Assembly: GCA_007378985.1 (NCBI GenBank)
Contig: VMHB01000001.1
Span: 64,252-128,251 of the forward strand
DNA from: Parcubacteria group bacterium Greene0714_7
GTDB taxonomy: Bacteria > Patescibacteriota > Minisyncoccia > Phycocordibacterales > Phycocordibacteraceae
Direction of reading: 5' to 3'
DNA length: 64,000 bases
Both the position numbers and the translations under genes were made by a program. Below, one piece after another: positions 29,674-48,550 of this stretch (position 1 is its first letter; each line of letters starts with the position of its first letter). A model generated the notes under the pieces. The model did no database searches, was not told the origin of the DNA, and saw only the letters and a list, made by a program, of their open reading frames with translations.

Positions 29674-29744
29674 GAATTAGGGTATATAGTGTTTAGGCGA
29701 TGCCTCATTGGATCCGTAGGGATCATAAGAAAACAAAAAACAAT

Positions 29745-30110
29745 ATGAAAAAAATATTTGCACGAGCTCTCCCGTTTTCTCTGTCGTTAGCATTGCCTTT
29801 TGTTGTACTTGCATCTGGTTGCGATAGTGCAAGCGCTGGAGGTCTTTGTAATCCTCTTGGATATAATTCTCTGTGGGAATTTTTACAGCGAATGCTCCAG
29901 TTGATTACTCAAATTGGTTTTCCTGTGATTGTGCTTTTCATTGTATTCATAGGGTTTAAATTCATCACTGCCGAAGGCAAACCTGAAGAGATTGCAAAAG
30001 TTAGAAGTCTCTTTTTCTGGGCGATCGTTGGCTCTTTAGTGGTGCTTGGAGCTCAAGCGCTTGCACTTGCAATACAGGCAACTGTTAACGATATTCAGGC
30101 TGGCTTGTAA
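29745..30110 (+). CDS. T4SS-pilin-like (TrbC/VirB2-type) small membrane protein, paralog 1
   Basis: Signal peptide, Cys-containing stretch, then two hydrophobic helices separated by a short charged loop (TAEGKPEEIAKVRS). Confidence 0.5.
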   Translation: MKKIFARALPFSLSLALPFVVLASGCDSASAGGLCNPLGYNSLWEFLQRMLQLITQIGFPVIVLFIVFIGFKFITAEGKPEEIAKVRSLFFWAIVGSLVVLGAQALALAIQATVNDIQAGL

Positions 30111-30118
30111 AAATATTT

Positions 30119-30553
30119 ATGACACTGACATCGATTATTAACACCATGACGGATGTTGTGACGTTAGCGGTTCCGTGGGTTCTCGTATTTTTGATTTTTT
30201 ATTGGAATGCTTACAAAATTATTTTTGACGCCGATAACGCAGAAAAAAGAAAACAGGCACTCCCTCGTCTTATATGGAGTATTGTTGCGCTCGCTATAAT
30301 CTTTTCTTTAGGAGGAATCGTCAATATAATTAGCAACACACTTCTTGGCTCAAGTAGTTCAACATTTGCACCTTCTAGTTCTTCGTCTCAGTCGCCTGAA
30401 CTTTTAGGTGGATCAAGGGCTGGAACATTAGGTACGCCAGCACCAGGTACTTCTCCAACCACTCCACGCTCACCAATTAACCCAAATATAGACCCAAGAG
30501 GAGAAATACGAACCCTACCTTCTTCTGGAGCTAATCCAGTGCGGGATATTTAA
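30119..30553 (+). CDS. T4SS-pilin-like small membrane protein, paralog 2, with a Ser/Pro/Thr-rich C-terminal tail
   Basis: Two TM helices around a DADNAEKRKQ loop, same spacing as the neighbouring paralogs; low-complexity S/P/T tail. Confidence 0.45.
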   Translation: MTLTSIINTMTDVVTLAVPWVLVFLIFYWNAYKIIFDADNAEKRKQALPRLIWSIVALAIIFSLGGIVNIISNTLLGSSSSTFAPSSSSSQSPELLGGSRAGTLGTPAPGTSPTTPRSPINPNIDPRGEIRTLPSSGANPVRDI

Positions 30554-30571
30554 AAAATTATATATTTTCAT

Positions 30572-30925
30572 ATGAAAAAAATAATCGGAATGACTTTTAT
30601 TGGCGCAACGGCACTCGTACCAGTTTCAACATTTGCAGCTGCAAGTACCATTCAGGATGTGCTCCGTAACCTTAACCTTCCACTTCAGCTCGCAACAACG
30701 CTTGTAGTAATGCTCGCACTTCTCCTCTTCTTTTGGGGTTTAGCTATGTATGTTTTTGGCTCATCTAATGATGAAAAGCGGAAAAAGGGTATACCTATGA
30801 TGATTTGGGGCGTTGTTGCTCTATTCGTGATGCTCTCTATCTTCGGTATCATTAATATGCTTCAGGCTACCTTTGGGGTTGGTTCTGGAACCCTCCAAAT
30901 CCCAACCATTAGTAGAGGGCAATAG
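30572..30925 (+). CDS. T4SS-pilin-like small membrane protein, paralog 3
   Basis: Signal peptide (…FAAAS); TM1-FGSSNDEKRKKGI-TM2 core nearly identical to paralog 4. Confidence 0.55.
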   Translation: MKKIIGMTFIGATALVPVSTFAAASTIQDVLRNLNLPLQLATTLVVMLALLLFFWGLAMYVFGSSNDEKRKKGIPMMIWGVVALFVMLSIFGIINMLQATFGVGSGTLQIPTISRGQ

Positions 30926-31046
30926 GCTATTGTGGTTCTCCACATCCCGTTTATACATTTTCCTTTGAAACAGGGGGAATGATACAATTAAGGCTGACTT
31001 ATTATTCAGGAGATTTATCTCGTTATATTTAATTGTTCGTAATTAT

Positions 31047-31421
31047 ATGAAAGGATTTTTAAGAACTGGTATTGCCACTGTCGTCGCTCTTGCTCCATTT
31101 GCTGCATTTGCTGCAGGCGGTGTTGATAACGCACTTACAAAAATTGGTGCTTTGATTACACAAGCAACACCAATTGTCGTTGCTCTTGCTCTTCTTGCCT
31201 TCTTCTGGGGTTTGGTTACCTACATCTTCGGTTCTTCAAATGATGAAAAACGAAAGAAAGGTATCCACATAATGGTATGGGGCATTATCGCTCTCTTCGT
31301 CATGCTCTCTGTCTTCGGTATCATCAATGCTCTTCAGAGCACATTAGGTGTTGAAAATACAACGACAATTCAGATTCCACAGGTGACTCCAGGTACTAAT
31401 GGAGGAGGAACTGCTCGTTAG
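31047..31421 (+). CDS. T4SS-pilin-like small membrane protein, paralog 4
   Basis: Signal peptide (…FAAFAAGG); the same FGSSNDEKRKKGIHIMVWG core. Confidence 0.55.
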   Translation: MKGFLRTGIATVVALAPFAAFAAGGVDNALTKIGALITQATPIVVALALLAFFWGLVTYIFGSSNDEKRKKGIHIMVWGIIALFVMLSVFGIINALQSTLGVENTTTIQIPQVTPGTNGGGTAR

Positions 31422-46100: not shown

Positions 46101-46170
46101 TGATTTTAAGTCTGAAAGATGAAAAGAGGTTCTGTAGTATTTTTTGAAATGGGTGAGTTACACTGATTCT

Positions 46171-46440
46171 ATGACAGAAGATCGCATACAAAAATTAGAA
46201 AAGGAAGTACAGCTCATCCAAGCGCGAAACTTGAAGGTAGAAGCCGAAAAAGCTTGGGAAGTAAGCTGGTTTCGTATTCTCACTATTACTATCATTACCT
46301 ATGTTGTTGCGTGTTTCATTCTTGCGATCTTAGGGATCAGCAACTTCATATTCAACGCATTAGTACCAGCTGTTGGATACTTCCTCTCTACACAATCACT
46401 TCCGTTAGTAAAAAAGTGGTGGGTTCAGAATCATAAATAA
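46171..46440 (+). CDS. Hypothetical small membrane protein (coiled-coil N-terminus, two TM helices)
   Basis: ORF with clear TM helices. Confidence 0.35.
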   Translation: MTEDRIQKLEKEVQLIQARNLKVEAEKAWEVSWFRILTITIITYVVACFILAILGISNFIFNALVPAVGYFLSTQSLPLVKKWWVQNHK

Positions 46441-46492: not shown

Positions 46493-46891
46493 TTAAGGAT
46501 TTCCTCCGCGACTTCGACGATCTGCTTCTGCTTGTCTGCGTCTCTCGTTCGCATTATTAAGAGCGGATAACTCTTGGTAGGCTTGTGGACTGCACGATGA
46601 AACATCTTCTTCTAAGTATTCTGGATATTCACCTCTTTGTATTTGTCTTCTTGTAATGGCTATGATTTCTTGACATTCAGATGACATTGCTTCACTTGCT
46701 CTCCTCCTTGCTTGGGCTTCATTAAATCTCCTAATATTTTCTGAGAGGGGACGATTAGGGTCATTGTAGTAGGGGTCTTGGCTCTGCGCTCCTGCCCCAA
46801 AAGGACTCAGTAATGCACCAAGAAACGCTACTCCAGCAAGAAGAGGATTCGTCTTTGAATGTTCACCTCTTTCCATATCTATCTTCACCAT
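46493..46891 (-). CDS. Hypothetical secreted protein (signal peptide; charged, Arg/Glu-rich C-terminus)
   Basis: Signal-peptide-like LLAGVAFLGALLSPFGAGAQS. Start ambiguous (46891 or 46876). Confidence 0.35.
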   Translation of the reverse strand: MVKIDMERGEHSKTNPLLAGVAFLGALLSPFGAGAQSQDPYYNDPNRPLSENIRRFNEAQARRRASEAMSSECQEIIAITRRQIQRGEYPEYLEEDVSSCSPQAYQELSALNNANERRRQAEADRRSRGGNP

Positions 46892-47055
46892 ACTCCTCTC
46901 CCCGTGGAGGTCAAGATATGTTCCCTGTGGTTGTGGAATGGTCTCATATACAGGCCGAGAAGAGCTTTCAAAGGTATACCCCATGAGATACAGTTTTTTA
47001 TTATACCCATTGCCTAATGCAGGTAAGTTATCTCACGAGGTATACTCATTGTGTA

Positions 47056-47934
47056 ATGAGAAAGATACTGATACTCCTTCTCCCGATAGTATTTTTCATG
47101 CCACTCGTGGCATTTGCTGCAGTTCAGCAAGACCCTTCAGCACTCTTAAGTGGGAGTGGTGGGGGATTAGTTCCTCAGTGTGAGGGAGCAGAGTGTAGGG
47201 CGTGTGATCTTTCCGAACTTGCAAACAATGTCATTAACTTCGCTGTTGCCTTCTCTGTCATTGTTGCCACTCTCATGTTTGCTTATGCAGGTATTCTGTA
47301 TGTAACCGCAGCAAGTAAGCCAGACCAAGTAAAGAAAGCACACGGCGTGTTTGTGAATGTATTTGTCGGCTTATGTATTGTGCTTACCGCATGGCTTCTG
47401 GTTAATATTACTTTTTCGGTGTTGACGGGGAAAGGTATTAGTGTTTGGACAAAAATATCTTGCGTGGGGAATCCTGAGTCCGCGGCTTTCCCAGATGCAC
47501 CTGGTGCACAAGCCTCTCGTCCTCAAGTGACAGGTAGTGGGACTCCAGTTACCCCAACAAATAGTAATGATAATCTTGCGGGAGTTCATCCCGACCTTGT
47601 CCGACTCGTCAATGCAGCTCATGCTTGTTCCGCTATTCAGTTTCAGGTGACGAGCGGTTTTCGTCAGAGGTCTAGCACTGCTACAGATTCACGACATATT
47701 CAGGGTATGGCTGTCGACGCTCATCCTATTATTAGAAGCATAGTGAGCTATACAGGAGGTTCATGTGTACCTCCTAATGCAAACTACCGAGCAATAAATG
47801 ACGCATTTGCCTGTGGCAGTCGGCAGACCGGTATTCCTTATCAGTGGGGGGGTAGTAGTCCAACCTTCATGCAAAACAGGTGTTACGATTCGATGCATTT
47901 TCAGTTACCCCGCTCGGTCTACCCTAATGGTTAA
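47056..47934 (+). CDS. Fusion protein: N-terminal T4SS-pilin-like domain plus C-terminal M15 (VanY/D-Ala-D-Ala carboxypeptidase-like) zinc peptidase domain
   Basis: Signal peptide, Cys-rich LVPQCEGAECRACD, TM1-SKPDQVKKAHG-TM2 pilin architecture, then a Pro/Thr linker and an SxHxxGxAxD-type motif (DSRHIQGMAVDAHP). Confidence 0.5.
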   Translation: MRKILILLLPIVFFMPLVAFAAVQQDPSALLSGSGGGLVPQCEGAECRACDLSELANNVINFAVAFSVIVATLMFAYAGILYVTAASKPDQVKKAHGVFVNVFVGLCIVLTAWLLVNITFSVLTGKGISVWTKISCVGNPESAAFPDAPGAQASRPQVTGSGTPVTPTNSNDNLAGVHPDLVRLVNAAHACSAIQFQVTSGFRQRSSTATDSRHIQGMAVDAHPIIRSIVSYTGGSCVPPNANYRAINDAFACGSRQTGIPYQWGGSSPTFMQNRCYDSMHFQLPRSVYPNG

Positions 47935-48550
47935 CGAATATCTAGCTCGTATGAAATTATCTCCAACTCTCATAGTTGCCTTCGGGGCCTTATTGCTCAT
48001 TATCGGATTGAGCATATTGTATTTCTTTTCTTTTGGATCAAACGCCACCGAGACAGCTACCACTAATGAAGATTTCTTCTCAGCTACATTTCCATTCTTT
48101 GGAACGAAAGATGATCGAAGTCCCGTTTCTACTACTTCACAGGGAGTACCGGTGCAGAGTTCAAAAACTTTAGAGGTGCGTACAGTTACTGGGGACATTT
48201 TGTTTGTAGAAGATTTTACTAAAGACCCTGATGTTATTGCCGAGCCAGATAATCGAGTTTTTTATGTTCTGTATCCCAATGCCACAAGTACCAATCCATC
48301 GGAATTTGATTATGAGATTAACTACTTTCCCTCAGATCACTCTTTCTCATTGGTCTTAGCAGGAGAGCCTCTTGCTGAGGTAAGAAGAAAAGCAGCTGAT
48401 GACTTAGCTAAAAGAGTCGGTCTATCTCAAAAAGAATTATGCTCAATCGTTGCCACAGTTCAAACTCCTCGTTGGGTGAATCAATATTATGCCGATAAGA
48501 ACCTTGGTCTTCCGGGTTGCCCTGGTTCAGTGAAATTCCAAGGTGACTAG
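47927..48550 (+). CDS. Hypothetical membrane-anchored protein (overlaps the preceding stop by 8 nt)
   Basis: Start ATGGTTAA overlaps the upstream stop; N-terminal TM (LIVAFGALLLIIGLSILYFF). Confidence 0.45.
   Translation: MVNEYLARMKLSPTLIVAFGALLLIIGLSILYFFSFGSNATETATTNEDFFSATFPFFGTKDDRSPVSTTSQGVPVQSSKTLEVRTVTGDILFVEDFTKDPDVIAEPDNRVFYVLYPNATSTNPSEFDYEINYFPSDHSFSLVLAGEPLAEVRRKAADDLAKRVGLSQKELCSIVATVQTPRWVNQYYADKNLGLPGCPGSVKFQGD

Follow-up and report, generated by a model that had tools for sequence, protein, structure and literature searches.

Results

A pilin-like membrane anchor fused to an M15C-type peptidase

A gene at positions 47056–47934 of the 64-kb stretch of the Greene0714_7 genome analyzed here (the window) encodes a single protein in which a membrane hairpin of the type IV secretion system (T4SS) pilin family is joined, through a flexible linker, to a domain (the head) that is a LAS peptidase of the M15C type and very probably active. 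This protein is one member of a large family of the ultrasmall Paceibacteria in which one pilin-like anchor carries alternative wall-cutting heads; its gene is paired with that of a dedicated membrane-anchored partner (the two genes forming a module), and the head together with most of the partner is a unit of exchange between two conserved blocks. A role of the module at sites of pilus assembly is proposed tentatively.

The open reading frame (ORF) is uninterrupted over its 292 translated codons, and its start is better placed at ATG 47056 than at ATG 47017, homologues beginning with MRK or MKK at the position equivalent to 47056. The same continuous ORF is found in independent assemblies (proteins P0001–P0004 and loci L010, L044 and L045; locus L001 holds P0001 and L002 holds P0004), so that the fusion is a real gene and not an artefact of assembly or of a frameshift. 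A preliminary description of this DNA had proposed a pilin-like N-terminal domain joined to an M15 zinc-peptidase domain; the recurrence of the fusion, together with the family, PDB and fold matches reported below, bears this out. Coordinates are collected in Table 1.

Residues 52–117 match the T4SS_pilin family (PF18895) with a score of 40.1 bits (Pfam gathering cut-off, 26.6 bits); the Pfam scan of the fusion protein gave no match to TrbC (PF04956). The anchor has the layout of a T4SS pilin, namely a signal peptide, with a predicted cleavage site after AFA and before AV, and two hydrophobic helices separated by a short basic loop (SKPDQVKKAHG). In the AlphaFold model, whose input alignment comprised 11 sequences, the helices span residues 47–87 and 89–124, residues 124–161 are disordered (predicted local distance difference test score (pLDDT) below 50) and the C-terminal domain is folded, with a core pLDDT of 77–91. 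The linker (residues 125–170, about 45 residues) is rich in Pro, Ala, Gly, Ser and Thr.

All members of the anchor family have C136, and nearly all have C50. Since these two cysteines flank the hairpin on the outside, they likely form a disulfide bond that would staple it. The predicted orientation of the hairpin, with both termini on the outer side of the membrane and the basic loop on the inner side, is supported by the positive-inside character of the loop and by the extracytoplasmic cysteine pairs present in all three parts. In pilins of the VirB2/TraA type, both termini lie on the exterior of the filament. A fusion of the holin–endolysin kind, resembling the type X secretion system (cf. 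ChiW/ChiX), was also considered; the PF18895 match, the predicted both-ends-outside topology and the presence of a signal peptide that can be cleaved led us to set it aside.

The preliminary description had further likened the N-terminal domain, in its signal peptide, cysteine-rich stretch and two transmembrane helices with a loop in between, to the four small pilin-like proteins encoded at 29.7–31.4 kb. Both match the T4SS_pilin family, but the likeness is limited: the domain is just 23–28% identical to the four proteins, and cysteines ahead of the first transmembrane helix occur in only one of them.

The identity of the head is supported by sequence and fold comparisons. Residues 208–284 align with Peptidase_M15_4 (PF13539; gathering cut-off, 25.0 bits) with a score of 24.0 bits (E 6e-5; profile positions 3–70 of 70), and homologues P0002–P0004 and P0032 have a precomputed match to this family. 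A phmmer comparison with PDB chains retrieved, over residues 169–291, the L-Ala-D-Glu endopeptidases LysECD7 (8q2g, E 1.4e-13), RB49 (23ri, 1.8e-13) and ChiX (5opz, 1.3e-8), and PHROGs places the head among endolysins (phrog_465, 5.9e-19). The six best Foldseek matches of the head model are all L-Ala-D-Glu peptidases (8q2g, 5opz, 23ri, 2mxz, 6akv and 2vo9; probability 1.0), with E values of 2.6e-8 to 4.3e-4 for the top five and 2.6e-3 for the sixth, 2vo9, and target TM-scores of 0.65–0.74 for 8q2g, 5opz and 23ri. VanXYg, VanXYc and LdcB come far behind (E 0.03–0.3, target TM-score 0.27–0.39), and hedgehog domains appear as weak superfamily matches. The preliminary description was thus right as to the M15 assignment and the zinc motif; its VanY-like, D-Ala-D-Ala type was rejected, because no match to VanY (PF02557) was obtained at E ≤ 1 in the Pfam scan of the fusion protein and both sequence and fold go with the M15C L-Ala-D-Glu endopeptidases.

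The zinc motif lies in DSRHIQGMAVDAHP, which corresponds to residues 211–224. R203, H214, D221, D278 and H281 do not vary among the six fused homologues, and the inclusion of four stand-alone CwlK-like proteins leaves them nearly invariant; the His/Asp/His triad of metal ligands (H214, D221 and H281), whose conservation the preliminary description had made decisive together with the fold of the domain, is therefore retained in homologues, and a LAS fold is predicted for the domain. These five residues map to Arg47, His68, Asp75, Asp120 and His123 of ChiX, respectively, and Asp120 has been demonstrated to be essential in that enzyme (PMC5778951). H214, D221 and H281 are accordingly predicted to bind zinc, D278 to be catalytic and R203 to bind the substrate, and the predicted target is the L-Ala-D-Glu bond of peptidoglycan stem peptides. 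The head is under very strong purifying selection, with a ratio of nonsynonymous to synonymous divergence (dN/dS) of 0.02–0.07 in comparisons with two orthologues.

The head is 32–34% identical to the best M15C structures and 41–44% identical to stand-alone CwlK-like proteins. With the M15C enzymes (ChiX 5opz, LysECD7 8q2g, RB49 23ri, EndoT5 2mxz, LysB4 6akv, Ply500 2vo9 and the CwlK type) it shares the fold, the SRH-x3-G-x-A-x-D and D-x2-H motifs, the zinc triad, the catalytic Asp and the Arg. These enzymes are soluble and consist of a single domain or carry cell-wall-binding domains, whereas here the enzyme is fused to a hairpin and a linker, and its gene is paired with that of a dedicated membrane partner; the head also has four extra cysteines relative to its M15C relatives. 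Only one protein was retrieved by a word-index search restricted to the head, and the sample of M15C heads remains small, since a metagenome scan for further heads of this type yielded only two close relatives.

One anchor, interchangeable heads

A phmmer search with residues 1–150 against 1.84 billion cluster representatives retrieved 8,535 proteins related to the anchor at E ≤ 1e-3 and 1,297 at E ≤ 1e-10. The best hits, pooled with those of a first search, gave a set of 185 proteins, 155 of which have at least 120 residues beyond the hairpin. These tails were clustered and representatives were scanned with Pfam. The largest class (86 of 155) is a domain that has no Pfam match and displays an H...D...H-type motif; SLT_3 lysozyme-like tails (24 of 155) and SLT tails (16 of 155) follow, M15C tails, the group of the query, number 5 of 155, and the rest falls into small groups that include CHAP-like, M15_3 and other domains. 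Most classifiable tails are therefore muralytic or look muralytic, and M15C is a rare type among them. The anchor itself is 66–97% identical over all head classes and genomes.

The commonest alternative head is probably LAS-like, as judged from sub-threshold matches of its profile to the Sonic hedgehog zinc motif in the PDB (E 0.65) and from its alignment with the M15C heads over the equivalent motif (hhalign E 8.9e-4, probability 23%). Two sorts of LAS-like heads can be told apart by their ends, PHWDI in class a and ILDLQV in class b (L009 8001–8930; P0006, P0010, P0012 and similar proteins). Class b heads seemingly lack the last His of the triad, and may therefore have no activity or rely on a different ligand. 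Five proteins of 740–850 amino acids (P0069, P0070, P0075, P0101 and P0105) have the same hairpin in mid-protein, the order in P0070 being an N-terminal subtilase domain (Peptidase_S8), the hairpin and a CHAP-like domain. Greene0714_7 itself has two further modules, represented by P0010 and P0011.

Several enzyme fusions of 300–450 amino acids are plainly named 'pilin' by NCBI, and the truncated P0032 is labelled 'M15 family peptidase, partial'; neither name conveys the fusion, which is otherwise implicit only in precomputed Pfam annotations. Pilin–hydrolase fusions go unmentioned in the survey of Patescibacteria T4SS (PMC12102498), in a 2025 T4SS review and in the S. epibionticum paper, and we found in the searchable literature no earlier description of a modular family of this kind with a dedicated partner and cassette replacement.

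A dedicated partner gene

The gene directly downstream encodes a protein with an N-terminal transmembrane helix followed by a disordered tether, about 40 residues long, and then by a globular domain (residues 78–207) predicted to lie outside, in which C172 and C198 are conserved; the AlphaFold model has a pLDDT above 90 over residues 80–207. Every homologue of this partner starts at the Met equivalent to ATG 47951 (invariant M9 in the alignments), which makes the 8-nt overlap between the two genes in the preliminary description doubtful: it holds for ATG 47927 only, and the likelier start leaves a 16-nt gap. The membrane-anchored nature of the downstream product, also part of that description, stands, and the two genes are at most 16 nt apart whichever start applies. 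A scan for promoters and terminators around the operon gave a result no better than chance.

The pairing is conserved. A partner homologue lies directly downstream in each of the nine loci first examined, whatever the head class. In a screen of 26 long fusion genes, about 24 of them assessable after subtraction of two cut by contig ends, the partner was found directly downstream in 20 cases and about 680 nt away in one, and was not detected in three. This conserved adjacency across loci supports the earlier suggestion that the two proteins work together.

No Pfam, NCBIfam or PHROGs family and no PDB profile or fold match was found for the partner, the best Foldseek PDB match of its confident model having an E value of 0.13. 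The possibility that it is the missing VirB8-like component (NTF2 fold) was dropped, as Foldseek, the PDB profile search, Pfam, NCBIfam and PHROGs were all empty.

All partners are homologous, with 41–52% identity between head classes, and their tree follows head class. Within classes, identity is 58% for the β-rich half of the protein and 74% for the C-terminal part; between classes it falls to 31% and 54%, respectively. This co-clustering of heads and partners does not by itself prove physical interaction, because linked genes share their history.

A third gene recurs in the neighbourhood and is transcribed divergently. It encodes a small, charged, predicted secreted protein with two cysteines and no family match, sometimes present in two copies (L002, L003/L012 and L007). 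A hidden Markov model (HMM) built from seven copies detected independent copies in L007, L009, L010, L011, L013, L014, L020, L030 and L044, always on the strand opposite to the module and no more than 936 nt from the long pilin–hydrolase gene where such a gene was called in the locus; in the 44 sources first screened, it detected no copies away from modules. A 98-amino-acid ORF (46144–46440, + strand) is found further upstream, with an N-terminal charged helix, two hydrophobic segments and no Pfam match; its DNA homology to L010, L014 and L017 suggests conservation at this place upstream of the module.

Exchange of head and partner at a conserved site

The module lies in a conserved neighbourhood (ClpB ... 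acyltransferase ... [module] miaA(−) Prx ... ParB RelA TopA), the occupant of which varies. The site holds a fusion with an M15C head in the window, L001, L002 and L010, a LAS-like head of class a in L005/L016, one of class b in L014, two modules in tandem in L017, and a short stand-alone pilin in the more distant lineages L024, L026, L028 and L032. The tandem of L017 (636–4501, between the acyltransferase gene and miaA) consists of an SLT_3 head and its partner followed by a class b LAS-like head and its partner. The short pilins at the syntenic site upstream of miaA (131–174 amino acids, 39–47% identical to the anchor, no partner; Campbellbacteria, for example) hint that the fusions arose from a stand-alone pilin at the miaA locus.

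Comparison with L014 delimits the exchanged segment. Nucleotide identity is 78–85% through the flanks and the N-terminal domain and ends at 47550, in the linker; homology is back at 48467 (93.8%) and continues into miaA, and no homology is detectable over the roughly 900 nt in between. The gene of L003 has a different head and belongs to another genome, in which it occupies another locus; the DNA of its N-terminal domain is 90.8% identical up to about 47538, after which the sequences cannot be aligned. At the 3' end of the partner gene, ~80 nt (positions 48467–48546) are better conserved with respect to L014 (93.8%) than the housekeeping flanks (78–85%), perhaps because recombination is targeted there or because the sequence is under additional constraint.

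The phylogenetic signal of the two segments differs accordingly: N-terminal domains cluster by lineage, at odds with head class, and partners cluster by head class. In the same orthologue pairs, synonymous divergence is 0.52–0.71 for the N-terminal domain, twice that of the head and partner (0.22–0.31), as expected from a mosaic history. What is exchanged is thus the head plus most of the partner, between two conserved blocks. A scan of IMG/VR viral contigs returned no relatives of the module, and a phage-borne module was ruled out on that basis.

Other features of the window

The four small stand-alone T4SS_pilin genes are candidate major pilins encoded outside the module. Their array directly follows genes for GyrA, a methyltransferase and a solute-binding protein, with no T4SS ATPase gene nearby, and the order gyrA–solute-binding protein–pilin array is repeated in L031, L033, L035, L037, L038, L040 and L042.

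Table 1. Positions of the module, its parts and associated features in the window
Feature	Position	Strand	Details and basis
Pilin-anchored M15C endopeptidase gene	47056..47934	+	292 aa; ORF list and sequence, T4SS_pilin and Peptidase_M15_4
Predicted signal peptide, residues 1–21	47056..47118	+	MRKILILLLPIVFFMPLVAFA, putative cleavage AFA/AV; hydropathy and AxA motif
Extracytoplasmic N-segment, residues 23–54 (predicted)	47122..47217	+	C42, C47, C50; hydropathy, sequence
VirB2-like helical hairpin	47218..47427	+	Helix 1, residues 55–86; loop, 87–97; helix 2, 98–124; PF18895, AlphaFold, hydropathy
Juxtamembrane motif, then linker, residues 125–170	47428..47565	+	W131, C136, N138-P139; pLDDT, composition
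M15C (LAS-fold) head, residues 171–292	47566..47931	+	PDB sequence matches, Foldseek, phrog_465, conservation, dN/dS
5' cassette junction, in linker	~47538-47550	+	Ends of DNA homology to L003 and L014
Partner gene	47927..48550	+	207 aa from ATG 47927, 199 aa from ATG 47951 (more likely); identical (100%) to Greene07147_129
Partner 3' end (last ~27 codons), 3' cassette boundary	48467..48546	+	...NLGLPGCPGSVKFQGD; 93.8% to L014
Small predicted secreted protein	46493..46984	-	HMM from 7 copies; divergently transcribed third recurrent neighbour
Four small stand-alone T4SS_pilin genes, array	29700..31421	+	PF18895, 29.5–43.2 bits; TrbC match for first gene

Discussion

We propose the following mechanism. 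The fusion protein would be exported by the Sec pathway and, once its signal peptide has been cleaved, would reside in the cytoplasmic membrane through its VirB2/TrbC-like hairpin, the flexible tether of about 45 residues (reach, roughly 10–15 nm) holding the zinc-dependent M15C head outside, where it would cut the L-Ala-D-Glu bond of stem peptides. Its gene would be co-transcribed with that of the bitopic partner, whose outside domain would stand on a tether of similar length; the partner would bind the head via its variable half and the constant face of the hairpin via its conserved C-terminal part, and would thereby govern the place and timing of cutting, the co-encoded small secreted protein being a possible third component. 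The anchor would bring the enzyme to the assembly site of a T4SS-type pilus for a local, VirB1-like opening of the wall, the target being in the first place the cell's own wall and possibly that of a host once the head is displayed.

That the role of the module is tied to a T4SS or pilus in this way, the anchor bringing a wall-opening enzyme to the assembly site and filling the place of VirB1, is the most likely of the readings considered, although we give it somewhat less than an even chance. VirB1 is lacking in most Patescibacteria that have VirB2 homologues, and Greene0714_7 (GCA_007378985.1, Paceibacteria, 850,663 bp) was scored VirB4-positive in a published table (PMC12102498), the gene lying elsewhere on the chromosome. 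Several observations weigh against this reading. VirB4, VirD4, VirB6 and VirB3 are absent from the window and from the Pfam-annotated flanks of the nine first loci (L001–L009; up to 8–10 kb where the contig permitted), so that the fusion gene, despite its hydrolase domain, is not inside any T4SS cluster; the window contains housekeeping genes and the small-pilin array, and the module sits among the former. No solved VirB2 or TraA pilin is found among the 50 best of the 119 Foldseek PDB matches (E ≤ 10), with the proviso that Foldseek matches helical hairpins poorly and that the hairpin has here a pLDDT of only 70–79. The high conservation of the hairpin is more in keeping with a membrane anchor than with an exposed pilus subunit, and a genome with at least three paralogous modules carrying different heads has more than a VirB1-like role needs. 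As regards the enzyme, the PF13539 score falls marginally under the cut-off and the stretch from the conserved Arg to the SRH motif is about 10 residues shorter in the fused heads than in their M15C relatives. Finally, the role given to the partner is conjectural, since the protein has no recognizable fold or family.

With the VirB2/TrbC-like pilins of Patescibacteria (PMC12102498, PMC10633639), the anchor shares the HMM match, the signal peptide, the two helices and the basic loop. Those pilins, however, have 100–150 amino acids, are often encoded near virB4 and form arrays with members about 25% identical, to be compared with 66–97% for this anchor, whereas members of this subfamily carry an enzyme of 120–300 amino acids, have their own partner and lie away from T4SS genes in all annotated loci. 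VirB1, PrgK (pCF10), TraG (pIP501) and CD419/TrsG are, like the fusion, membrane-tethered wall-degrading enzymes, found here also in an organism with a monoderm-type T4SS; they differ from it by a single transmembrane anchor, by SLT, CHAP, LytM or NlpC domains and by being encoded in a T4SS cluster, as opposed to a pilin-like anchor, an M15C head and a gene unlinked to a T4SS.

The absence of T4SS genes in the vicinity would suit a housekeeping autolysin, in which the hairpin has been co-opted purely as an anchor and the heads are growth or division hydrolases controlled by the partner. The core-genome, syntenic position of the module, between ClpB/acyltransferase and miaA/Prx/TopA, the very strong purifying selection on the heads, the several bond specificities found in one genome, as in an ordinary set of autolysins, and the unusual conservation of the anchor all speak for it. 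In Gram-positive bacteria, ActH controls LytH, SpdC controls SagB and FtsEX controls CwlO or PcsB; the module shares with LytH–ActH, SagB–SpdC and CwlO–FtsEX the pairing of a hydrolase with a membrane protein and control at the membrane surface, but no sequence or fold relation of the partner to these regulators was found. On the other hand, replacement of the head and partner at an orthologous locus, together with a mosaic N-terminal domain, would be unusual for such enzymes and is typical of target-directed ones, and the stand-alone short pilin found at the same locus in distant lineages suggests a pilin ancestor. We regard this explanation as rather unlikely, though it is the main rival of the pilus reading.

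Exchange of heads would also fit enzymes directed at other cells. The fusion could reside in, or at the tip of, a VirB2-type pilus and digest host peptidoglycan, with the partner acting as an immunity-like inhibitor that masks the head in the membrane of the producer; the C-terminal head would then be displayed, pilin termini facing outwards, exchangeable heads with class-matched partners would suit different host wall types, and both the resemblance of the head to phage endolysins and the requirement for T4SS and pilin arrays in the epibiotic growth of a cultivated Saccharibacterium would fit. Yet this anchor subfamily is not known to polymerize, the anchor is highly conserved instead of diversifying, a 15-kDa head on each subunit is possibly incompatible with filament packing and T4SS genes are not adjacent, all of which makes a weapon of this kind unlikely. 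The sharp junction between a constant N-terminal domain and a variable head, the clustering of the downstream gene by head class and the conserved sequences that bound the cassette on both sides also recall a polymorphic toxin–immunity locus, in which a delivery domain would be followed by variable hydrolase toxins and a cognate immunity protein. Indeed, a constant N-terminal part, an abrupt junction, a swappable enzyme and a co-changing downstream gene are common to CdiA-CT/CdiI, Rhs-CT/RhsI and exchange among phage endolysins. Here, however, the downstream proteins form one homologous family (41–52% identity between classes) with a constant C-terminal part, unlike the immunity proteins of unrelated toxins; the N-terminal domain is an integral membrane hairpin without a known delivery function, and neither a delivery apparatus nor toxin activity is known for the family; the modules occupy vertically inherited core-genome positions and have no IMG/VR viral relatives; and the clustering of partners with heads could equally reflect the shared history of linked genes. 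As every partner belongs to one homologous family and nothing points to a delivery function, a classical polymorphic toxin is very unlikely.

Whichever of these explanations applies, the enzyme and its partner, compact at about 500 residues in all, are amenable to tests in vitro, and the label 'pilin' conceals many enzymes in present annotation. The most far-reaching possibility, which we consider improbable, is that Paceibacteria arm a VirB2-type pilus with interchangeable heads (M15C, LAS-like, lytic-transglycosylase-like and CHAP-like) that are each silenced in the membrane of the producer by a class-matched partner and exchanged between genomes as head-plus-partner cassettes to match host walls; if so, a wall-breaching pilus would explain the 'missing VirB1' and part of the essentiality of the T4SS for epibiotic life. 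In the one tractable species of Patescibacteria, epibiotic growth depends on the T4SS and pilin arrays, and the modules described here provide a candidate gene set for how monoderm cells pass a filament or channel through their own wall or that of a host.

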